Below are positions 1 to 17,655 of a stretch of DNA of 18,808 nucleotides, one piece after another. The notes beneath the pieces are model-generated. The model made no database searches, had not been told where the DNA came from, and saw nothing but the letters and a program-made list of their open reading frames with translations. The first letter of the stretch is position 1. Each line of letters begins with the position of its first letter. Origin of the DNA: a virus (lineage: Duplodnaviria > Heunggongvirae > Uroviricota > Caudoviricetes). The stretch spans positions 1 to 18,808 of IMG/VR virus record IMGVR_UViG_2531839477_000015; one strand, written 5' to 3'. Position numbers and translations under genes: made by a program.

Positions 1-1284
1 TTACTTCTTCGCCTCTGCAACCACTTTACTACCCACGCCGCGGTTATTGTATTCCCACATGCGGTTGTAGTTAGTGTCATTCAGATTGCGCTGTATTTCG
101 TCGTTATCATCTACGCTGCCGGTATTACCCGCAAACGGACGATTAGAGATCACCGCATCGGCCCACGGTTTAGCCGTGTTAAAACCTTCGTTGATGGCGC
201 TATCACGGATCACCACCTGACCGTTGGTATTGGCATCAACATCCAGCGAGCGGCCCAGTTGCGCCACACCATCACCGAAAGCATTGAAACGGCTGTTTAC
301 GGCGAGGAAACCGTAGTAAATGTTGGACAGCGTAGCCGGTGCAAACACATACGCTTCTTGCTGAGTACGTGAGTTCACCACGCGGAATTCGGTGTTATCG
401 AACACCACTGCGCCGCGACCAGAAACGATATCCACATCCCCTTCAATGTAGCTGTTGGTCACCAGCGTACGCGGCTGACGATTCGTTTCCAGACGGTTCT
501 GCACACCGCTGTTGGTGACAAAGAAGGTGTTCTGACGACCGAGAATGTTAACGTTGTTAATCTGTACCTGGTCACCATCAGTACGCAGTGCCACCGCCGG
601 ATGGTTACCTGCATCTACGCTATCGCCCAGCGTGTTTTCGATGGTCAGATTTTGCAGTTGCAGGCCATTGTTTTGTGACCAGAAGACCGCAGAGCAGAGA
701 ACACCGATACTGTCGCTGCGTTTGCTCTGGCAGCTATCGTACATATACCACGCTGGTTTACCTGGCATATATTTGCCGCGCGGGTTGACGTCGTGACGCC
801 AGTCGGCAGGGCTCATGCCACCATCAAGGGAAAGCCCAATCTTCACATCAATCGGTTTTTCACCTGTACCGTACAGAGTAATTCCACCCGGAGCGGCAGG
901 GACATATACCGTTCCCTGATACTCACCAGGCATCACGGCAATATACTGGCGCTTGTTGGTACGCTTGATAATTGCCGCATCTACCGCCGCCTGAATCGTG
1001 GTATGCGTTACACCTTGAGTGCCCGCCGGGCCGACAACAAAGTCAGGTTGCGCAGGCAGGGTAATCGGGGAAGGATTCCACGCTGCAGCACCTGGTGTCA
1101 GGGATGCAAAATAGTGTTGAGCATCGAAATTCTGCGCTTCTTTTGCCGACAGAATCGGGCGAGAAGAGGTACCAGGCGCGGTTTGATCAGAAGGACGTTG
1201 ATCGGGCGGGGTTGAGCTACAGGCGGTCAGCGTCACGCCAAAAGCCAATGCCAGCGCCAGACGGGAAACTGAAAATGTGTTCAC
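1..1284 (-). CDS. ybhC: YbhC outer-membrane lipoprotein (pectinesterase-fold acyl-CoA thioesterase); host gene flanking attB-lambda
   Basis: 427-aa ORF; GTG start at 1282-1284 with GGAG 6 nt upstream; signal peptide plus lipobox LTAC; recognised from memory as E. coli YbhC; stop TAA at 1-3. Confidence 0.9.
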   Translation of the reverse strand: MNTFSVSRLALALAFGVTLTACSSTPPDQRPSDQTAPGTSSRPILSAKEAQNFDAQHYFASLTPGAAAWNPSPITLPAQPDFVVGPAGTQGVTHTTIQAAVDAAIIKRTNKRQYIAVMPGEYQGTVYVPAAPGGITLYGTGEKPIDVKIGLSLDGGMSPADWRHDVNPRGKYMPGKPAWYMYDSCQSKRSDSIGVLCSAVFWSQNNGLQLQNLTIENTLGDSVDAGNHPAVALRTDGDQVQINNVNILGRQNTFFVTNSGVQNRLETNRQPRTLVTNSYIEGDVDIVSGRGAVVFDNTEFRVVNSRTQQEAYVFAPATLSNIYYGFLAVNSRFNAFGDGVAQLGRSLDVDANTNGQVVIRDSAINEGFNTAKPWADAVISNRPFAGNTGSVDDNDEIQRNLNDTNYNRMWEYNNRGVGSKVVAEAKK

Positions 1285-1418: not shown

Positions 1419-2489
1419 TTATTTGATTTCAATTTTGTCCCACTCCCTGCCTCTGTCATCACGATACTGTGATGCCATGGTGTCCGACTTATGCCCGAGA
1501 AGATGTTGAGCAAACTTATCGCTTATCTGCTTCTCATAGAGTCTTGCAGACAAACTGCGCAACTCGTGAAAGGTAGGCGGATCCCCTTCGAAGGAAAGAC
1601 CTGATGCTTTTCGTGCGCGCATAAAATACCTTGATACTGTGCCGGATGAAAGCGGTTCGCGACGAGTAGATGCAATTATGGTTTCTCCGCCAAGAATCTC
1701 TTTGCATTTATCAAGTGTTTCCTTCATTGATATTCCGAGAGCATCAACATGCAATGCTGTTGGGATGGCAATTTTTACGCCTGTTTTGCTTTGCTCGACA
1801 TAAAGATATCCATCTACGATATCAGACCACTTCATTTCGCATAAATCACCAACTCGTTGCCCGGTAACAACAGCCAGTTCCATTGCAAGTCTGAGCCAAC
1901 ATGGTGATGATTCTGCTGCTTGATAAATTTTCAGGTATTCGTCAGCCGTAAGTCTTGATCTCCTTACCTCTGATTTTGCTGCGCGAGTGGCAGCGACAGG
2001 GTTTGTTGTTATATGGCCTTCAGCTATTGCCTCTCGGAATGCATCGCTCAGTGTTGATCTGATTAACTTGGCTGACGCCGCCTTGCCCTCGTCTATGTAT
2101 CCATTGAGCATTGCCGCAATTTCTTTTGTGGTGATGTCTTCAAGTGGAGCATCAGGCAGACCCCTCCTTATTGCTTTAATTTTGCTCATGTAATTTATGA
2201 GTGTCTTCTGCTTGATTCCTCTGCTGGCCAGGATTTTTTCGTAGCGATCAAGCCATGAATGTAACGTAACGGAATTATCACTGTTGATTCTCGCTGTCAG
2301 AGGCTTGTGTTTGTGTCCTGAAAATAACTCAATGTTGGCCTGTATGGCTTCAGTGATTGCGATTCGCCTGTCTCTGCCTAATCCAAACTCTTTACCCGTC
2401 CTTGGGTCCCTGTAGCAGTAATATCCATTGTTTCTTATATAAAGGTTAGGGGGTAAATCCCGGCGCTCATGACTTCGCCTTCTTCCCAT
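1419..2489 (-). CDS. int: Lambda-type integrase (tyrosine recombinase)
   Basis: 356-aa ORF MGRRRSHERRDLPPNLYIRNNGYYCYRDPRTGKEFGLG...DKIEIK, recognised as lambda Int; adjacent to attL; 23-nt overlap with xis as in lambda. Confidence 0.97.
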   Translation of the reverse strand: MGRRRSHERRDLPPNLYIRNNGYYCYRDPRTGKEFGLGRDRRIAITEAIQANIELFSGHKHKPLTARINSDNSVTLHSWLDRYEKILASRGIKQKTLINYMSKIKAIRRGLPDAPLEDITTKEIAAMLNGYIDEGKAASAKLIRSTLSDAFREAIAEGHITTNPVAATRAAKSEVRRSRLTADEYLKIYQAAESSPCWLRLAMELAVVTGQRVGDLCEMKWSDIVDGYLYVEQSKTGVKIAIPTALHVDALGISMKETLDKCKEILGGETIIASTRREPLSSGTVSRYFMRARKASGLSFEGDPPTFHELRSLSARLYEKQISDKFAQHLLGHKSDTMASQYRDDRGREWDKIEIK

Positions 2490-2685
2490 TTCTGATCCTC
2501 TTCAAAAGGCTACCTGTTACTGGTCGATTTAAGTCAACCTTTACCGCTGATTCGTGGAACAGATACTCTCTTCCATCCTTAACCGGAGGAGGGAATATCC
2601 TGCACTCGCGTACCCATCGACGAACTGTTTCAAGGCTTCTTGGGCGTCGCTGGCGTGCGTTCCACTCCTGAAGTGTCAAGTACAT
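2467..2685 (-). CDS. xis: Excisionase
   Basis: 72-aa ORF MYLTLQEWNARQRRPRSLETVRRWVRECRIFPPPVKDGREYLFHESAVKV..., recognised as lambda Xis. Confidence 0.95.
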   Translation of the reverse strand: MYLTLQEWNARQRRPRSLETVRRWVRECRIFPPPVKDGREYLFHESAVKVDLNRPVTGSLLKRIRNGKKAKS

Positions 2686-3074: not shown

Positions 3075-3707
3075 TCAAAGTGGAGGCTCTGGTAGCGGCA
3101 TCCAGTGTGACGGCTCACATACCCCCTCAACACCATTCATGTAAAAGAATTGAAATAACCCTTTACCTTTGTGAAACCCTACCATCTGCTCTTTTGTGTC
3201 TGAGCAATAAACCAAAACATCTTCTTCGCTTGGCATTCGCTCACTACAGCTTATCCAACCATCCGGAGTTACCGGAGAGTTGCCGGGTTCTTTAATGTGC
3301 AAGCGAGGCTCACCATCTTTTGGCTCAGGCCACTGGCGCTCCATGATAATCTTCAATTTATCTTCCATAGCAACGGTAATTTCAGCATCGCTGATGCCAG
3401 CACGGCGCTGTGCATCCCACAACAGAAACTGCATATCAGCCCACTCGCTAAGATCGTCTGGTTCGGCTGCGGCTTCCAGTGCCTCTTTTGAGAGATGTTT
3501 CAGCGGAACAATGGGGCCAACGCAGCCAAATGTGGAGTCAGACCATTTGGCATACTCGTGGCGAATCTGTTCGCGTTCCAGTGATGCCAGCGCAATTCGT
3601 GCCAGTTCTTCCGCTTCTTCTGCTGGCAGTACAACGTTGCTACCAGGTCCGTATGTTTCGCGCCACTGCTTGATTGTCAGTAGTCGCTCTTTGGTCATAG
3701 TGGTCAT
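3075..3707 (-). CDS. DUF551-like phage protein (hypothetical)
   Basis: Start trimmed to ATG 3705-3707 (MTTMTKERLL...) with AAGGAG upstream; C-terminus WISCSERMPSEEDVLVY...HWMPLPEPP resembles the DUF551 signature. Confidence 0.65.
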   Translation of the reverse strand: MTTMTKERLLTIKQWRETYGPGSNVVLPAEEAEELARIALASLEREQIRHEYAKWSDSTFGCVGPIVPLKHLSKEALEAAAEPDDLSEWADMQFLLWDAQRRAGISDAEITVAMEDKLKIIMERQWPEPKDGEPRLHIKEPGNSPVTPDGWISCSERMPSEEDVLVYCSDTKEQMVGFHKGKGLFQFFYMNGVEGVCEPSHWMPLPEPPL

Positions 3708-3708
3708 A

Positions 3709-4230
3709 TCACTCTCCTTTGATGCGAATGCCTGTTGCAATGCTGTTTATGATGCTGTCAGTGCATGGGGTAGAAAGCTGGGCATCTCCAGCAATTTTCA
3801 TGACCTCAACATCTGCATATCGAATACCGAGGTGTATCAGACCGGCTATGCCTGACTTAAGCCGAGCATTTTCCATAAATAGAACCTTTGCCCGCTGTTT
3901 TTCTGCTTCAAGCTCAACTCTCAGCTTCCCTACCGTTAGCGCAATCTCCTCGTTCTCCTGGTCGCGAGATTTGATGTATTGCTGGTTTCTTTCCCGTTCA
4001 TCCAGCAGCGCCTGCACTACTTCAGGGTTGAAAGCTGCGATATAACGAGCGTTGTTCTCTGCGTTGTTCTGTCCATCAAAGCCGGTCCATTTGATAACGT
4101 CTTCACATCGTTTATCACCAGGTGTATGCACCGCATATGTACCAGTACCAGACGAAATAAATGCGACCCATTCACCCTGTGTTGCCAGTTGCGCCGCCTC
4201 ACGCAGTGCCTGATAGTCAATCTTGCTCAC
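3709..4230 (-). CDS. Ead/Ea22-like protein
   Basis: GTG start at 4228-4230 with AAGGAGG 6 nt upstream; N-terminus SKIDYQALREAAQLATQGEW typical of Ead/Ea22-like prophage proteins; coiled-coil middle. Confidence 0.65.
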   Translation of the reverse strand: MSKIDYQALREAAQLATQGEWVAFISSGTGTYAVHTPGDKRCEDVIKWTGFDGQNNAENNARYIAAFNPEVVQALLDERERNQQYIKSRDQENEEIALTVGKLRVELEAEKQRAKVLFMENARLKSGIAGLIHLGIRYADVEVMKIAGDAQLSTPCTDSIINSIATGIRIKGE

Positions 4231-6234: not shown

Positions 6235-6708
6235 CTAGAACGGAATATCCGAATCGTCAAAATCCATAGGTGGTTCGCTGTGATTCCCCTGCTGCTGAGA
6301 TTGCTGTCTTTGTTGCTGACCGTTATTTCGCTGAGGTGAAGACTGTTCATTGCCTCCTTGCTTGCCACCAAGCATTTTCATGGTTCCACCAACGCCCACG
6401 ATGACTTCGGTAGTGAACCTATCCTGTCCGCTTTGATCCTGCCATTTTCTTGTCCGTAATTTGCCTTCAAGATAAACCTCTGAGCCTTTTCGCAGATATT
6501 CGCTGGCAATTTCTGCCAGTTTCCCGCTCATTACCACGCGGTGCCACTCCGTCTGCTCCTTTTGCTCTCCAGTTTGCTTATCACGCCATTGTTCTGACGT
6601 AGCAACTGTAAGGTTTGCAAATGCCGTTCCTGATGGTGAATATCTGATTTCTGGATCATGCCCAAGGCGACCAATAATGATCACCTTATTTACGCCTCTA
6701 CTTCCCAT
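6235..6708 (-). CDS. ssb: Single-stranded DNA-binding protein
   Basis: N-terminus [23 protein letters not shown]...TEWHRVV, Gln/Gly-rich linker and C-terminal [12 protein letters not shown] tail, matching SSB. Confidence 0.93.
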
Positions 6709-7416
6709 TTATGCCGCCTGTTTTAGTTCGTTAACTCTGATGTTCATTACCTGAACGCATTTAGCCTGCGCCTCCTCGTTGCCAGCCATTAATTGCCAGT
6801 CACGCTGATAACGCTCGATGAGTTTTTTCTTGTCAGTTTCTGTTGATGCATAATCGCTGAAGTCTTTCAGGATTTGTTCGCAGTCAACCGATGGAGATTT
6901 CTGGTTGGTATTTTCTGGTGATGGTTTGTTATCTGATGCTGGGATTGCCCATCCCGGCAGCGATGGAGGGAGCCAGTAAAATCCTGTTCCATCCTTGAGT
7001 TTTGCCCTGTGCCATCCCTGCTTTTTATCGAGAGATGTTTGTGCGAAACCTTCCTCAAGGTTATACAGATACCGACCGATTCCCCACTGAACGGCAGCGC
7101 GCTTCATTGCACCGGAACGACCACCTTTGACGGCTTCTACCTGCGTGTTTTCAGCAGCATCCCATTTGGTTACCCATTCGGAATCAATCTTGATTGATAT
7201 GCCGCATTCAACTCCGCCGTTGTTGGGAATATCGCGGTATTCATTGCGCCATCCTGCTTTGCCGCAAACATCGTCCAGGCGTTTCATGATTGCCCTGTTC
7301 GTGACATAAGCCAGCACCATAGCCCACACCTTTCCATCGCGTGTTTTACCGCTTTGCTGTATTCGCCATTCGATATCTTCAGGGCTGAATGGCTCATCGA
7401 ATTTGTTCAAATCCAT
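6709..7416 (-). CDS. Rad52/22-type single-strand annealing protein (recombinase)
   Basis: Motifs NRAIMKRLDDVCGKAGW and GGRSGAMKRAAVQWGIGRYLY match the Rad52-family signature; sits directly upstream of ssb. Confidence 0.75.
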   Translation of the reverse strand: MDLNKFDEPFSPEDIEWRIQQSGKTRDGKVWAMVLAYVTNRAIMKRLDDVCGKAGWRNEYRDIPNNGGVECGISIKIDSEWVTKWDAAENTQVEAVKGGRSGAMKRAAVQWGIGRYLYNLEEGFAQTSLDKKQGWHRAKLKDGTGFYWLPPSLPGWAIPASDNKPSPENTNQKSPSVDCEQILKDFSDYASTETDKKKLIERYQRDWQLMAGNEEAQAKCVQVMNIRVNELKQAA

Positions 7417-7424
7417 AATTCACC

Positions 7425-7595
7425 TCAGAATGGACACGGCCCAAGGAAATAACGCTGATTTAATACTTCGACTCGTGACAAATTAAGGCATACCCGCATT
7501 CCTTCGCGGTCGCCATTATGGCGATACCAGAGAGCTTTCTGCGTGTACATGCGTCTCTGTAACTTGCTCTCCTTCACTGTGGTTGCAAGTGACAT
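7425..7595 (-). CDS. Small ORF (56 aa), alternative reading of the region
   Basis: ATG 7593-7595 with AAGGAG upstream; overlaps the 7516-7672 ORF in another frame, so at most one of the two is likely real. Confidence 0.2.
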   Translation of the reverse strand: MSLATTVKESKLQRRMYTQKALWYRHNGDREGMRVCLNLSRVEVLNQRYFLGPCPF

Positions 7596-7672
7596 GAATA
7601 TCTCCTTCGTTACCGATTAAATCTTTCATCTGACGAATGAATTCTTCGTCTGACCAGTTATCTGTAAAACTC
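7516..7672 (-). CDS. Small ORF (52 aa), coupled to the kil-like ORF
   Basis: ATG 7672-7674 overlaps the stop of the upstream ORF (ATGA); weak Shine-Dalgarno. Confidence 0.3.
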
Positions 7673-7823
7673 ATTTCCTGCGATACCACGGAAGGTTGAT
7701 AGCTGATTTCATCGCTTTATTTGCTTCAAGCCACATTTTTGAATCACCAATAAATCTGGCTATTACTGCTTTGTTTTGTGCAGCACGAAGCACCTGGTGA
7801 TTGATGGCTATTTCATTGCGCAT
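7671..7823 (-). CDS. kil: Kil-like small protein (putative FtsZ/cell-division inhibitor)
   Basis: 50-aa ORF; segment IARFIGDSKMWLEANKAM resembles the FIGDEKM core I recall from lambda Kil; lies between cIII-like and the recombination genes as in lambda; GGAGG upstream. Confidence 0.4.
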   Translation of the reverse strand: MRNEIAINHQVLRAAQNKAVIARFIGDSKMWLEANKAMKSAINLPWYRRK

Positions 7824-7942
7824 AACGCCTCCAGTTGTTTCTTTGCTGCTCTGATTAATTGTTTAACTCGGCGTGATAATTCAGATTCGTGCGGGTAGAA
7901 AGCGGACATGACGCCGCTACCCGCGAACTGAAAGTGCATCAT
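7808..7942 (-). CDS. cIII: CIII-like protein (putative FtsH inhibitor / CII stabiliser)
   Basis: 44-aa ORF MMHFQFAGSGVMSAFYPHESELSRRVKQLIRAAKKQLEALCAMK; pattern M-x-[FY]-x-[IF]-AG ... ESxLxRRxxxLxR resembles lambda CIII; GAAGGAG 6 nt upstream. Confidence 0.5.
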   Translation of the reverse strand: MMHFQFAGSGVMSAFYPHESELSRRVKQLIRAAKKQLEALCAMK

Positions 7943-8017
7943 GGGTAACTCCTTCTGTTTGATTGCATAACGAAAACGCCTCGAGTGAAGCGTTATTGGT
8001 ATGCGGTAAAGCCGCGC

Positions 8018-8329
8018 TTAGGCGGCTGATGTTTCTTCTTTCAGGCTTTCGAGATATTTACGTGGGTCGTCGTAACATTGGCATTCGCTATACCAATCCA
8101 CCCAGCGATCAGTAAGCCCCATATCTGATAAATCTTCATCGGTAAGGCTCTCATCCCACATCTCAAGGCCGTTAGCATTGCAGTAATCAGGCTTGATGTT
8201 GTTGTCATACTGAAAGGCGTCATAATCAGCCAGTGCGTCCATCAGGCGAACACCCTCTTCAACACTTGCCACTTCTACAATGAACGGCTTCATAGGTACT
8301 TGCGGGATATGCCAGACACGTAATTTCAT
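8018..8329 (-). CDS. Hypothetical acidic protein (103 aa)
   Basis: Start trimmed to ATG 8327-8329 (MKLRVWHIPQ...) with GGAGGA upstream. Confidence 0.55.
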   Translation of the reverse strand: MKLRVWHIPQVPMKPFIVEVASVEEGVRLMDALADYDAFQYDNNIKPDYCNANGLEMWDESLTDEDLSDMGLTDRWVDWYSECQCYDDPRKYLESLKEETSAA

Positions 8330-12193: not shown

Positions 12194-13046
12194 TCTTGCA
12201 ACCGTAACACATTTAAGGCCTTCACAACGGCCTGTGGAGCGTCGTGTGGCAGAAGTTGAAGATGGTTATACCCGTCTTGCAAATGCCCTGTATGAAGAGC
12301 TTATCGGCGCAGATTTAACGAAAAATCAGAGCAAGGTTGCCCACGCCATATGCCGTAAAACATACGGCTACGGTAAAAAGATGGATCGCATCTCTGATAG
12401 TCAGTTAGCTCAAATTACCAGGCTGCCAAGACAGAAGGTAAACAAGGCCAAGAATGAGCTTATCGCGATGAAGGTTATCCTTCGCGAAGGCCAGCAAATC
12501 GGGCCTAACAAGAACATCGAGGAATGGCAAATAGAAGGGTGTCACTACTCTGGTGATAATGTCACTGCATTGGTGACAAAAAGTGTCACCAAAACGGTGA
12601 CAGCGCTGTCACCAAAACAGGGACACACAAAAGAAACTATTACAAAAGAAAAAAGAAATAATAAAAACACTATGTCCGAAAGTGTTCGGACGGAGTGTGA
12701 AAAATCACATGACCGTCACGAAGAAACCGACAAGGCATTCGAGGAAATATTCTGGTGTGCAGGCATGCGGAAAGCCGGGAAGAAAAACGCAGCTTCGGCA
12801 TTCAGAACACAGTTCAGGGAATGGCGTAAAACTACCAGGGGTACGGCAAGCGAGTTTGCCACGATGCTGGCAGAAGACATCGCATGCAGGAATGGTAAGC
12901 AGTTCGGATTCGACAGGTTGTTACCATCGAGCTACCTGAACGGTCAACGCTGGAACGACGAGAAGCCAGAAACTATTCAACCACAATCCAAACCATCATC
13001 CGCAATCACCGTATCGAAAACTGGCTACGTGTTTTTCGACAGGTGA
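12186..13046 (+). CDS. Replication initiator, lambda O-like N-terminal domain with unrelated C-terminal domain
   Basis: N-terminal region [58 protein letters not shown]...GPNKNIEEW parallels lambda O; iterons inside the gene; C-terminal half not O-like. Confidence 0.85.
12551..12672. repeat. Putative ori: iteron cluster plus AT-rich tract inside the O-like gene
   Basis: Six alternating copies of GGTGACA/TGTCACC-type heptamers between 12551 and 12622 (tggtgataa, tgtcactgc, ttggtgacaaaaa, gtgtcaccaaaac, ggtgacagcgc, tgtcaccaaaac), followed by the A-rich tract 12628-12672. Confidence 0.6.
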
Positions 13047-13153
13047 ACCATGAAATCAAAAATCAAATCGCTACTGGTCGCTGGTTATAACCACGGCTGG
13101 TTAAGTATTTCGTTTGTCGATTTCTGGTTTAAAAATCTCAATCTGAGGGAATC

Positions 13154-13648
13154 ATGATGAGCCTTGAAGTTGGAGAATATATACCTGGTTATGAGGGTAA
13201 ATACTCTGTAACCAAAGACGGTCGTGTTTATTCACATTTAAGAGGCAGGTTTTTGAATCCATCTCCGGATAACAAGGGTTATCTAAGAGTCACTTTGTGT
13301 TCCGATGGGATTCAGAAGACGTTAAAAGTTCATCGTCTTGTAGCTCAATTATTTATCCCAAATCCGTATTGCAAGCCAGAAGTAAATCATATCAACGGCG
13401 ACAAATCGGATAACGCCATTTGGAACTTGGAATGGTGTACCTGCTCAGAGAATTTAAAACATGCTTTTAGCATCGGACTGAAAAGCGCAAAGGGAGTTTT
13501 TAATGGTAGGGCAAAACTATCTGAAACTGATGTGATTGATATCAGGAATTCTGTTGGTATGAAACTAAGCGAACTATCCACTAAATACGGAGTGAGTGAA
13601 ATGCAAATTTCCACAATCCGCAGAGGAAACGCATGGAGGCACCTTTGA
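13154..13648 (+). CDS. HNH homing-type endonuclease (NUMOD4-like N-terminus, HNH_3 core, C-terminal HTH)
   Basis: YIPGYEGKYSVTKDGRVYS...HRLVAQLFIPNP...VNHINGDKSDNAIWNLEWCTCSEN; by-eye AT-rich; sits between the O-like gene and the primase-helicase. Confidence 0.8.
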   Translation: MMSLEVGEYIPGYEGKYSVTKDGRVYSHLRGRFLNPSPDNKGYLRVTLCSDGIQKTLKVHRLVAQLFIPNPYCKPEVNHINGDKSDNAIWNLEWCTCSENLKHAFSIGLKSAKGVFNGRAKLSETDVIDIRNSVGMKLSELSTKYGVSEMQISTIRRGNAWRHL

Positions 13649-15525
13649 GTCCATCAGAACTTAGCGACCTGCTTTGGGCGCAGGTTGACAGGGTGGCTCC
13701 GCACCTGTTGCCAAACGGCAAGAAAGAGGGGCATGAGTGGGTTGCCGGTAACGTCAACGGTGACAAGGGAAACAGCCTTAAGGTCAACCTTAGCGGCAAG
13801 AAAAAATGGGCTGATTTCGCCGAGGGAGACGGCGGTGACATGCTTGATTTGTGGATGGCATGTCGTGGAATTAACCTGCATCAGGCTATGCAGGAAGCGA
13901 AAGCATTTCTCGGTATCAAGGATGACGATCACCATTTCGATGCCAAACGTGAGAAGAAATTCTCCAGACCTGATCGCAAGAAAATCGCCCGCTACGTTAC
14001 CAGGACAGAATCCCATCTTGAGTACCTGCAATCGCGTGGCATATCGCCAGAAGTCGTAAAGCGCTACGAGGTTGTCAGCGGCAAGGTGTGGAATGGAGAA
14101 CGAGAACTGGATGCTCTGGTGATTCCGTACAAACGCGATGGTGAGTTGTTGCAGGTCAAGCGAATCAGCACTGAGCGCTCGGACGGGAAGAAAGTCATTA
14201 TGGCAGAAGGTGATTGCGAACCTTGTCTGTTCGGATGGCAGGCTCTGGACGCTGGCGTGAGGGCGGTTGTACTTTGCGAAGGCGAAATTGATTGTATGAG
14301 CTATGCGCAATACGGCATCTCGGCGTTATCCGTGCCGTTTGGTGGCGGGAAAGGCGCTAAGCAACAGTGGATTGAGTTTGAGTATCACAACCTCGACAGG
14401 TTTGAGGAAATATTCATCTCGATGGACGTTGATGATGTTGGTCGTGAAGCCGCAAGGGAAATCGCAAGCCGACTCGGTGAACATCGTTGCCGTCTTGTTA
14501 CTCTGCCGTACAAGGACATCAACGAATGCCTGATGAACGGTGTTACCGAGGATGAAATCTGGCAGTACATCGGCACGGCATCCTACTTCGATCCTGAAGA
14601 ACTCTACAGCGCGCGAGAGTTTTACCAGGACACTATCAACGCTTTCTACGGCAAGCAGCAGTATCTGTTTAATCCACCGTGGGAATCTCTGGCAGATAAA
14701 TTCCAGTTCCGTGAGGCCGAGTTGACGCTGGTCAATGGTGTGAACGGTCACGGAAAAACGGAGGTTGTCGGGCATATGGCACTTGAGGCAATGCGTCAGG
14801 GGGTGAAGACGTGCATCGCGTCACTTGAGCTGAAGCCTGGTATTCTCCTTAAGCGCCTTACCCGTCAGGCAACGTGCTGCAAGATGCCGCCAGTGCTGGA
14901 AATTGACTCTGCATTTAAATTTTATGACGAAAGACTTTGGGTGTTTGGCCTGACCGGAACGGCGAAATCCGACAGGCTGATCGAAATATTCGACTACGCT
15001 CGCCGCCGATACGGGATCCAGTTATTCATCATCGACAGCCTGATGAAATGTGGCATAGGCGACGATGACTATAACGGGCAGAAGGCGTTTGTTGACTCGA
15101 TTTGCGACTTCAAAAACAAAACAAACTCCCACGTCATTCTCGTTACTCACTCGCGAAAAGGAGACAGCGAAGAAAAACCAACCGGGAAAATGGACGTAAA
15201 AGGCTCTGGAGCGATAACAGACCTGACAGACAACCTTTTCATCATCTGGCGTAACAAGGCTCGCGAGAGAGCGTTACAGAGAGTTCAGAGTGGTGAAAAG
15301 ATGTCAGAGAAGGACGAACAGCTACTGGCATCTCCGGCATCTGTTTTGATGCTTGAAAAACAACGTAACGGCGAAGGTTGGGAAGGTGGCGTCCCGTTGT
15401 TCCTTGACGAGCAATCGCACCAGTTCCTGCAACTTGAATCAGGATCGCCATATAGCTACATCGCCAATATGCCGAAATCGGAATATGACGAGGCGTGGCG
15501 ACAGGAAAACGTGACGGAGTATTAA
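13633..15525 (+). CDS. Bifunctional primase-helicase (Toprim primase + DnaB/SF4-like helicase)
   Basis: 630 aa; Toprim-like VVLCEGEIDCMS; Walker A LVNGVNGHGKTEV; Walker B-like LFIIDSLMK; occupies the lambda P position. Confidence 0.85.
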   Translation: MEAPLSPSELSDLLWAQVDRVAPHLLPNGKKEGHEWVAGNVNGDKGNSLKVNLSGKKKWADFAEGDGGDMLDLWMACRGINLHQAMQEAKAFLGIKDDDHHFDAKREKKFSRPDRKKIARYVTRTESHLEYLQSRGISPEVVKRYEVVSGKVWNGERELDALVIPYKRDGELLQVKRISTERSDGKKVIMAEGDCEPCLFGWQALDAGVRAVVLCEGEIDCMSYAQYGISALSVPFGGGKGAKQQWIEFEYHNLDRFEEIFISMDVDDVGREAAREIASRLGEHRCRLVTLPYKDINECLMNGVTEDEIWQYIGTASYFDPEELYSAREFYQDTINAFYGKQQYLFNPPWESLADKFQFREAELTLVNGVNGHGKTEVVGHMALEAMRQGVKTCIASLELKPGILLKRLTRQATCCKMPPVLEIDSAFKFYDERLWVFGLTGTAKSDRLIEIFDYARRRYGIQLFIIDSLMKCGIGDDDYNGQKAFVDSICDFKNKTNSHVILVTHSRKGDSEEKPTGKMDVKGSGAITDLTDNLFIIWRNKARERALQRVQSGEKMSEKDEQLLASPASVLMLEKQRNGEGWEGGVPLFLDEQSHQFLQLESGSPYSYIANMPKSEYDEAWRQENVTEY

Positions 15526-15554: not shown

Positions 15555-15586
15555 AGGCCTGCAGGTAATCGCAGGCCTTTTTATTT
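15555..15586 (+). terminator. Intrinsic terminator (tR2-equivalent) after the replication genes
   Basis: Perfect 8-bp stem AGGCCTGC/GCAGGCCT (15555-15562 / 15571-15578), 8-nt loop, then TTTTTATTT. Confidence 0.8.
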
Positions 15587-15602
15587 GGGGGAGAGGGAAG
15601 TC

Positions 15603-16019
15603 ATGAAAAAACTAACCTTTGAAATTCGATCTCCAGCACATCAGCAAAACGCTATTCACGCAGTACAGCAAATTCTTCCAGACCCAACCAAACCAATCGT
15701 AGTAACTATTCAGGAACGCAACCGCAGCATTCGGCAAAATGCACGCCTTCACGCGATGCTATCTGAAATAAGTAAGAAGGCTACATATCATGGAAAAGCA
15801 AGAAATATTGAGTTTTGGAAGGGGTTATTCGTTTCTGGTTGGCAGATTGCAACCAACCAGCACCCTGAGATTATATCAGGGTTAGAAGGTGAGCTAATAA
15901 ACATCAGAGAGAGTACGGCGACTCTATCTGTAAAAAAAATATCCGAAATAATGGACTACATAGAAGCATATTGTGCCATGAACTCAATTCATCTTAGCGA
16001 ATGGAGGAATTATGATTGA
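15603..16019 (+). CDS. ninB: NinB (Orf-family recombination mediator)
   Basis: MKKLTFEIRSPAHQQNAIHAVQQILPDPTKPIVVTIQERNRS matches the lambda NinB N-terminus as recalled; remainder is a diverged homologue; the track start at 15585 is TTG. Confidence 0.85.
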   Translation: MKKLTFEIRSPAHQQNAIHAVQQILPDPTKPIVVTIQERNRSIRQNARLHAMLSEISKKATYHGKARNIEFWKGLFVSGWQIATNQHPEIISGLEGELINIRESTATLSVKKISEIMDYIEAYCAMNSIHLSEWRNYD

Positions 16020-16614
16020 GGTTTGGGTAGATATCGAAGGAATTCCATTTTATCAGGTTAGCAATAAAGGAAATTTCAGGTCTATTACGAGGGAAATTAC
16101 AGTAACATCAACCAGACAGAGGCCATATAAGAAAATAATTAATGGCACTAGCGTAAAACCATTCAAGTGCAAGTCGACAGGATATCTTCAAATAAAGGTA
16201 TACGGTAAGAAATACAGCGCCCACAGGATAGTTGCGAAAGCATTCTGTACAGGGTTCTGTGATGGCTTGGTAGTTAATCACAAAAATGGGCAAAGAGATG
16301 ACAATAGGGCTGAAAACCTTGAATGGGTATCTCATTCTGAAAACTCAAAGCACGGATATAAACAAAATGGAAGAATACCTATATCGCTAGGTAAATTTAG
16401 TGGTGATCATCCTGCCAGTAAAGCTGTTATTTCTACTGACATGAAAACTGGGGAGGAGGTTTATTATGAAGCAGCTATGGATGCTGTCAGAGAAGGATTT
16501 GATAGTTCGTCAATTAGTCGTTGCTGTAATGGCGAAAGCTCATATCACAAAGGAAGATTCTGGCGATTTGCAAATGAAACAATGAAAGCGAGATGGGGAG
16601 ATCGGGCTGCATGA
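16012..16614 (+). CDS. HNH homing-type endonuclease inserted at the ninB 3' end
   Basis: NUMOD4-like GIPFYQVSNKGNFRS and HNH_3 HRIVAKAF...VNHKNGQRDDNRAENLEWVSHSEN; AT-rich by eye; C-terminal KARWGDRAA equals the lambda NinB C-terminus as recalled. Confidence 0.8.
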   Translation: MIEVWVDIEGIPFYQVSNKGNFRSITREITVTSTRQRPYKKIINGTSVKPFKCKSTGYLQIKVYGKKYSAHRIVAKAFCTGFCDGLVVNHKNGQRDDNRAENLEWVSHSENSKHGYKQNGRIPISLGKFSGDHPASKAVISTDMKTGEEVYYEAAMDAVREGFDSSSISRCCNGESSYHKGRFWRFANETMKARWGDRAA

Positions 16615-17138
16615 CTATCAAATCAAATACGCCAGCACACGACAAGGACTGCTGGCAAACGCCGCTTTGGCTTTTTGATGCACTGGATATTGAGTTTGGA
16701 TTCTGGCTGGATTCGGCAGCGAGCGACAAAAATGCTCTGTGTGCTCACTGGCTAACTGAGGCCGACGACGCACTCAATTCTGAGTGGGTAAGCCACGGTG
16801 CAATCTGGAATAACCCACCGTACAGCAATATCAGGCCGTGGGTGGAAAAAGCTGCTGAGCAGTGCATACAACAGCGACAGACGGTAGTTATGCTTGTGCC
16901 AGAGGATATGTCAGTCGGATGGTTCAGCAAGGCTCTGGAGAGTGTCGACGAAGTTCGCATTATCACTGATGGACGGATTAATTTTATCGAACCATCGACA
17001 GGGCTGGAGAAGAAGGGAAACAGCAAAGGCTCCATGCTGCTGATTTGGCGACCGTTCATCAGTCCTCGACGGATGTTTACTACCGTATCCAAAGCGGCAT
17101 TGATGGCGATCGGGCAGGGCGTCAGGAGGGCGGCATGA
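16611..17138 (+). CDS. Phage Dam-family DNA N6-adenine methyltransferase
   Basis: Catalytic motif AIWNNPPYS; N-terminus [26 protein letters not shown] typical of phage Dam family; ATG 16611 overlaps the HNH stop (ATGA). Confidence 0.8.
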
Positions 17139-17311
17139 GGCGACAGCGACGAAGTTTCACCGACATCATCTGCGAAAACTGCAAATACCTTCCAACGAAA
17201 CGCTCCAGAAATAAACGCAAGCCAATCCCAAAAGAATCTGACGTAAAAACCTTCAATTACACAGCTCACCTGTGGGATATCCGGTGGCTAAGATATCGTG
17301 CGAGGAAATGA
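17135..17311 (+). CDS. ninE: NinE
   Basis: [58 protein letters not shown] matches lambda NinE as recalled; AGGAGG 5 nt upstream; ATGA overlap with the methyltransferase stop. Confidence 0.85.
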
Positions 17312-17313
17312 CA

Positions 17314-17655
17314 ATGGATTATTCACAGTTAAGTGATTTTGAAATTAACAGAATGGTAGGAGACATAATTTTTAAAGGCCTTTGGGCAAGTAAACCGGAA
17401 ACATCAGGGAATAACACCAACAAATGGTATTACGGAAATGCTGATACAACTTTTGAGCCATTAAATCATTTGCCTGACTACTGCAATGATCCGAGCGCTT
17501 CATGGCCGATTATTGAGAAATACAGGATTTCTATCTTAGACCAGTTAACTGAATGGTGTGTGGATGCAAAAGGCGTAAGCCCAATATTTGATACCAGACC
17601 TCTCCGCGCCGCCATGATTGTCTTTCTCCTGATGCAGGAGGCCAATAATGCTTAG
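17314..17655 (+). CDS. nin-region hypothetical protein (possibly NinX/DUF2591-like)
   Basis: ATG 17314 ([16 protein letters not shown]...) with GAGGA 7 nt upstream; family assignment is tentative. Confidence 0.55.

Follow-up and report, generated by a model that had tools for sequence, protein, structure and literature searches.

Bacteriophage T1 reportedly encodes a GATC methylase (T1 Dam, described by Schneider-Scherzer et al. in 1990), and M.EcoVT2Dam is said to be a GATC enzyme that was cloned in 2001 by Radlinska and Bujnicki. M.EcoVT2Dam, which belongs to prophage VT2-Sa, has been tabulated as an orphan methyltransferase with a GATC specificity predicted from similarity in REBASE (PMC6602927, Table 3); for this enzyme, the same paper cites Radlinska & Bujnicki 2001 (its ref. 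20). It has also been cited as a phage Dam-like protein (PMC7556043), in a work that names the Dam of phage HP1 as a known phage GATC methylase and that describes the role of phage Dam enzymes as not well understood. The dam coding sequence of phage Phi24B, for which 100% protein identity to VT2-Sakai is given, exhibits expression linked to the lytic cycle (PMC3342100). In the ST131 strain EC958, two prophage methyltransferases (one a predicted Dam homologue) were reported to be transcriptionally inactive in the lysogen (PMC4659465).

Adenine methyltransferases of other kinds have also been characterized. M.EcoGII is a beta-class enzyme without sequence specificity that was reported to be unexpressed in its native strain (PMC5778455). 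Hia5, also non-specific, features FxGxG and DPPY motifs and a putative recognition region of ~90 residues (PMC3299994). In the grouping of Iyer, Zhang & Aravind, PCIF1 and the methyltransferase domain of the DIRS1 retrotransposon were assigned to group 2 (M.TaqI/EcoKI-like), and the Dam proteins of E. coli and T4 to group 3 (PMC4738411).

Here, a dam-like gene was analyzed in a stretch of 18,808 nucleotides of viral DNA (IMG/VR record IMGVR_UViG_2531839477_000015; hereafter "the window"). The initial annotation had described the gene product as an orphan, Dam-family adenine methyltransferase encoded in the nin region. The features are compiled in Table 1.

Table 1. Coordinates of the features in the window (position 1 is its first nucleotide).
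Feature	Coordinates	Strand	Basis or remark
ybhC-like pectinesterase-family host gene	1-1284	-	
Lambda-type integrase (Int)	1419-2489		
Excisionase (Xis)	2467-2685		
dATP/dGTP pyrophosphohydrolase (PF04447) + DUF551 ORF, early-left	3075-3740	-	DUF551 also in VT2-Sakai orf4
NUMOD4 + HNH_3 homing-type gene, 164 aa	13154-13648		between O-type replication and Toprim/DnaB-like primase-helicase genes
Intrinsic terminator: hairpin (15555-15578) + T-run, AGGCCTGCAGGTAATCGCAGGCCT + TTTTATTT	15555..15588	+	between helicase gene and ninB
ninB (Orf-family recombination mediator), chimeric allele	15603..16019	+	Pfam, alignment
NUMOD4/HNH_3 homing-type endonuclease gene between ninB and dam	16012..16614	+	Pfam, PADLOC
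dam-like gene, probable 175-aa phage orphan DNA N6-adenine methyltransferase	16611..17138	+	PF05869 / TIGR01712, AF2 model
Codons for N-terminal helix W-x-T-P (T17, P18) and strand-1 L-D-x-A-A (D34, A37)	16656..16721	+	alignment conservation, model secondary structure
Catalytic motif IV codons (NPPY, residues 68-71)	16812..16823	+	AAC CCA CCG TAC
ninE, start overlaps dam stop	17135..17311	+	Pfam
ninX-like gene, probable ATG at 17308	17308..17655	+	Pfam; ATGA overlap with ninE stop (17308-17311)

Gene, protein family and prevalence

The dam ORF is intact, comprising 175 codons followed by a TGA stop, and the NPPY motif that had been noted in its product was located in catalytic motif IV. The ORF is far beyond chance, as judged from its match to PF05869 ("DNA N-6-adenine-methyltransferase (Dam)"; E 6.4e-65, 218.4 bits with the cut-off at 28.1, spanning positions 1-167 of the 169 in the profile) and to TIGR01712, an equivalog of NCBIfam ("phage N-6-adenine-methyltransferase"; 265.9 bits with the cut-off at 97.05, positions 1-165 of 165). 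PHROG 111 (phrog_111, DNA methyltransferase) was also matched (8.6e-88), as were the "orphan methyltransferase" models of PADLOC. A second possible ATG for dam is located at 16593; the homologues and both profiles begin at MTIKSNT. GGGGAG (16595-16600), a Shine-Dalgarno-like sequence, is located 5' of the dam ATG, and AGGAGG (17124-17129) precedes that of ninE. A GATC at 16600 overlaps the former; it is common to mEp332, absent in VT2-Sakai, and was treated as chance.

Conservation was assessed in a family alignment of 56-57 members, for which full-length proteins were picked, most of them ~160-200 residues in length. Six positions (T17, D34, N68, P70, R122 and F125) are invariant, and P18, A37, P69, Y71, N137 and S141 are at least 90% conserved. 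Every conserved position is present in the window protein, in the motifs W-x-T-P, D-x-A-A, NPPY, GR..F and GN.KGS. The W-x-T-P and L-D-x-A-A elements are presumed to serve in AdoMet binding and in positioning of the active site, an assignment inferred from the description of group-2 methyltransferases in PMC4738411.

The family is large. The nearest cluster in a collection of 5.8 billion proteins is 99% identical to the window protein; more than 2,300 proteins belong to it, and it already goes by the name "phage N-6-adenine-methyltransferase [Escherichia coli]". An exhaustive HMMER scan returned 8,784 clusters (at 50% identity) that match the family with E <= 0.001. Among 5426 complete E. coli genomes, 1579 (~29%) carry the dam gene, in up to 5 places per genome, under the PGAP name "phage N-6-adenine-methyltransferase". 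Matches were found by tblastn in 2134 phage records, including those of T1-like, Klebsiella, Vibrio and Gram-positive phages.

In relatives that are ~50% identical to the window protein (P0139, P0140, P0147, P0242 and P0195), PF05869 is fused to other domains. The partners are a C5-cytosine DNA methylase (PF00145, N-terminal) and, in one case, a PAPS-reductase domain. These fusions look like multi-specificity DNA-modification proteins. The presence of C5-cytosine DNA methylases in them speaks for a DNA substrate over an RNA one in this family, despite the fold likeness to PCIF1 that is described below.

Identity with the VT2-Sakai protein

The window protein was compared to orf32 of VT2-Sakai (BAA84315), and 175 of 175 residues were identical. 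In VT2-Sakai, orf32 is placed between nin146 (ninB) and nin60 (ninE). It is the sole VT2-Sakai ORF that is annotated as methylase-like, and, in a six-frame scan of that phage for ORFs of at least 100 residues, it alone featured a [DNS]PP[YFWH] motif. Another candidate for M.EcoVT2Dam, orf4, was rejected, as it is a DUF551 protein. By elimination, and from secondary citations, orf32 would thus be M.EcoVT2Dam. On the cited literature, methylation activity would then already have been tested on a protein that is, by this elimination, identical to that of the window.

Genomic context

The window covers the early genes of a lambdoid prophage that is a mosaic. The left part holds, in order, Int, Xis, the pyrophosphohydrolase-DUF551 ORF, Ea22-like, Abc2, SSB, a Rad52-family recombinase and gp17 (superinfection exclusion). 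In the middle are an S24 repressor, the O-type replication protein, a first NUMOD4-HNH gene and the Toprim/DnaB-like primase-helicase; the right part consists of ninB, a second HNH gene, dam, ninE, ninX and rusA. The placement of dam in the nin region, between ninB/HNH and ninE/ninX/rusA, was thereby corroborated. The succession of a ybhC-like gene and lambda-type Int and Xis indicates a prophage at att-lambda, which we take to be the ybhC-adjacent insertion site. No complete E. coli genome matched the window over its full length, the best coverage being 54%.

The stretch that bears the terminator, a strong one, is 97% identical to the ren-ninB intergenic region of lambda. The terminator is presumably tR2 of lambda, whose record is without such an annotation. 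The gene 5' of it differs: it is the primase-helicase in the window and P/ren in lambda. As dam is located downstream of tR2, its expression is expected to be delayed-early and probably dependent on N antitermination. The lytic-cycle-linked expression of the Phi24B gene is consistent with such control.

GATC is depleted in the window. The tetranucleotide was observed 43 times, where base composition predicts 72.5 and a Markov model 92.4 (ratio 0.47), and stretches of 1.5 kb (12384-13927) and 1.4 kb (6679-8107) are devoid of it. CTAG (0.36) and GGCC (0.57) are likewise low. Depletion of GATC is well known in enterobacterial phages and prophage regions.

The HNH neighbor and the ninB junction

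The gene between ninB and dam had been called a homing-type HNH gene, and its architecture (NUMOD4, HNH_3 and an I-HmuI NUMOD-like domain) agrees with this, as does its match to the "homing endonuclease" model of PADLOC. The ATGA overlaps that had been described on both flanks of dam were observed. Upstream, the dam ATG (16611-16613) runs into the HNH stop codon, TGA (16612-16614); downstream, the ninE ATG (17135-17137) overlaps the TGA of dam (17136-17138). The ninB and HNH genes overlap by 8 nucleotides, ATGATTGA (16012-16019).

The origin of the upstream overlap was examined by DNA alignment. The last ~9 codons of the HNH gene (KARWGDRAA*, ~30 nucleotides) constitute the 3' terminus of a lambda-type ninB, and, from ~16585 on, the DNA is identical to the 3' end of ninB and the start of dam in mEp332. 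In both mEp332 and VT2-Sakai, ninB directly overlaps dam. These alignments indicate that the HNH cassette was inserted into the 3' end of ninB and that its ORF took over the former overlap of the ninB stop with the dam start. Because the HNH ORF ends in the 3' end of ninB, the HNH-dam ATGA is the ancestral ninB-dam junction and denotes no special link between HNH and dam. The first ~43 residues of NinB are identical to those of lambda and mEp332, and the remainder is a different allele, ending in SEWRNYD*; this chimera suggests that flanking sequence was co-converted along with the cassette. HNH and dam were found as a pair in 62 of the 1579 dam-bearing complete E. coli genomes. Many Stx2a phages carry the block ninB-HNH-dam-ninE, with an identity of 97.5%.

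The other homing-type gene of the window (Table 1) encodes a protein that is 39% identical to the dam-adjacent HNH protein over the HNH core. With it, two free-standing homing endonucleases are found in one 18.8-kb early region.

As to orphan status, the neighbors of dam are ninB, the homing-type HNH gene, ninE, ninX and rusA. Restriction-endonuclease families had no match among the larger ORFs (>= ~70 residues) of the 18.8-kb window, which upholds the claim that no cognate restriction enzyme is nearby.

Structure modeling

A model of the protein was calculated with AF2 from 56 diverse relatives (pLDDT 95.7, pTM 0.91). It comprises one compact alpha/beta domain of the Rossmann type, and neither an inserted nor a separate target-recognition domain was present in the model of this 175-residue protein. 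Foldseek was used to compare the model to the PDB. The top matches were to PCIF1/CAPAM (6irx and 6irw; TMq 0.60-0.61, E ~2e-5), and E. coli Dam (2g1p/2ore) was matched with a TMq of 0.32-0.35 (E ~0.03; 0.026 for the TMq of 0.35) over ~113 aligned columns. That PCIF1 is ranked above E. coli Dam by fold fits the grouping of Iyer, Zhang & Aravind (PMC4738411). PF05869 is cited in few papers, one of which deals with fungal DIRS/Ngaro retrotransposons.

Neither a protein search nor a search with a 56-sequence profile identified a solved structure in the PDB that is related by sequence. The only matches, to SdiA and to Med31 (the latter through a coincidental "WCNPPYS"), were rejected as chance. The window protein had no match to PF02086 (MethyltransfD12, the family of E. 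coli and T4 Dam), and PF05869 alone was reported at E <= 0.01. There was also no Pfam match to MT-A70, and the motif is NPPY, not DPPW.

Discussion

The window carries an intact version of a phage gene that is both very common and already named; the finding is real but ordinary. Its value as a discovery is small, given that the protein is already annotated, abundant and identical to a protein of Stx phages.

In our assessment, the gene is best explained, with high likelihood, as that of an orphan phage DNA adenine-N6 methyltransferase that targets GATC, is expressed as an N-dependent delayed-early product and keeps the phage DNA methylated. By this mechanism, the NPPY active site would transfer a methyl group from AdoMet to the adenine of 5'-GATC-3' sites in duplex DNA. 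The gene would be transcribed from pR only under N antitermination, i.e. after infection or induction, and translated as a link in a chain of stop/start overlaps (ninB, HNH, dam, ninE and ninX). The enzyme would then keep the fast-replicating phage DNA fully methylated at GATC whatever the level of host Dam. Full methylation would protect the DNA from restriction of the MboI/DpnII type in new hosts, and it may possibly deprive MutH and SeqA of their substrate, GATC sites that are hemimethylated or unmethylated. The window protein very probably methylates GATC, a specificity that is taken from the literature on the identical VT2-Sakai protein; the biological role of dam is one that we infer. 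Some points speak against the explanation. E. coli already has its own Dam, and the gain from a second GATC methylase is unproven. The depletion of GATC in the window leaves fewer sites to protect. Finally, the nearest solved structure to the model is that of an RNA cap methyltransferase.

A DNA adenine methyltransferase of relaxed or non-GATC specificity, conferring broad anti-restriction cover as would M.EcoGII or Hia5, was also considered. Non-specific prophage adenine methyltransferases are known from E. coli and Haemophilus (PMC5778455; PMC3299994), and a protein of only 175 residues whose model features no separate target-recognition domain might be one of them. However, GATC is the specificity given for the identical protein of VT2-Sakai, and the relatives from T1 and HP1 are known as Dam enzymes. 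Further, M.EcoGII is of the beta class and Hia5 has FxGxG/DPPY motifs and a recognition region, whereas the window protein matches PF05869 only. Relaxed specificity is thus deemed unlikely. The physiological substrate could instead be RNA (rRNA, or the 5'-terminal or 5'-proximal part of an mRNA) or single-stranded DNA, the methylation of which would tune induction or translation. The rank of PCIF1/CAPAM, an RNA cap m6Am methyltransferase, at the top of the Foldseek results (TMq 0.60, E 1.8e-5) favors this idea, and there is a precedent in M.EcoPA8orf6770P, an MT-A70 protein of an Stx prophage that was annotated as a DNA methyltransferase and methylates 16S rRNA (PMC10810198). That enzyme, however, is of a different family (MT-A70, DPPW) and is encoded elsewhere in the prophage. 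The fusions of PF05869 members to C5 DNA methylases and the reports of the VT-2, T1 and HP1 members as GATC DNA methylases also oppose an RNA substrate, and the likeness to PCIF1 would reflect common group-2 ancestry, not a common substrate. We consider such a substrate very unlikely to be the physiological one.

The protein might also be the modification half of a restriction-modification or defense system, with a nuclease that is either the adjacent HNH protein or encoded beyond the window. Abutment and translational coupling of an HNH gene to dam are what such a system would have, but the HNH protein has the architecture of a homing endonuclease and matches the PADLOC model for one. It is missing from most dam loci (the pair being present in only 62 of 1579), with dam following ninB directly in mEp332 and VT2-Sakai, and a second, similar HNH gene is situated between the O and helicase genes of the same window. 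With no match to a restriction-enzyme family among the scanned ORFs of the window, a restriction-modification system is extremely unlikely.

A further candidate concerns the main job of the enzyme, which would not be anti-restriction; it would be either the blinding of MutH and SeqA or the methylation of an additional RNA or single-stranded DNA substrate. The latter is in line with PCIF1 as the nearest solved structural relative. We regard this candidate as improbable. If it were true, rapid and full methylation of nascent GATC would blind both MutH-directed mismatch repair and SeqA. Then ninB/Orf and rusA could recombine diverged lambdoid genomes, and dam would help to drive the mosaicism of prophages.

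Comparison with known systems

The designation "Dam-family" was only partially sustained. The name of PF05869 and the GATC target agree with it; the lack of a PF02086 match and the poor fit to the fold of E. coli Dam do not. The window protein shares with E. coli Dam, T4 Dam and DpnM the reported GATC target, AdoMet-dependent N6-adenine methylation and orphan status. These enzymes differ in having an inserted winged-helix recognition domain, which is absent from the model of the window protein. Their relation to the window protein is one of functional analogy and not of close homology.

PCIF1 is a eukaryotic RNA enzyme of ~700 residues with extra helical and WW domains. PCIF1/CAPAM, a cap-specific adenosine-N6 methyltransferase, has a sequence identity of 13-16% to the window protein, and its crystallized chains comprise 467-494 residues. 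M.EcoGII and Hia5 are, like the window protein, prophage-borne orphan adenine methyltransferases; they differ from it in that they are larger, belong to another class (beta for M.EcoGII) and have no Pfam family in common with it. The non-specific prophage methyltransferases (M.EcoGI/GII, Hia5 and M.EcoGIX) were rejected as counterparts, with M.EcoGII being beta-class, Hia5 having other motifs along with a recognition region of larger size, and M.EcoGIX being plasmid-borne. The Stx-prophage MT-A70 enzyme M.EcoPA8orf6770P was likewise rejected, as it has a DPPW motif and is encoded by gp5, a different gene (PMC10810198).

T1 Dam (AAP49979, 237 residues) is a member of PF05869 (E 1.7e-70) and is 33% identical to the window protein; orf13 of HP1 (173 residues) is 38% identical, aligned over 150 residues. 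Both share W-x-T-P, D-x-A-A, NPPY and GR..F..GN.KGS with it. T1 Dam is distinguished by an N-terminal extension of 48 residues and an insertion after strand 6. The phage types also differ from that of the window, T1 being virulent and HP1 P2-like.

The likeness to M.EcoVT2Dam/orf32 amounts to 100% identity over 175 residues and the same site between ninB and ninE, with the same stop/start overlap between the methylase gene and ninE. Stx2 phage II and Phi24B have the same protein as VT2-Sakai orf32. The loci differ 5' of dam: in VT2-Sakai, ninB directly precedes it, whereas in the window the HNH cassette is positioned between the two genes and ninB is another allele.
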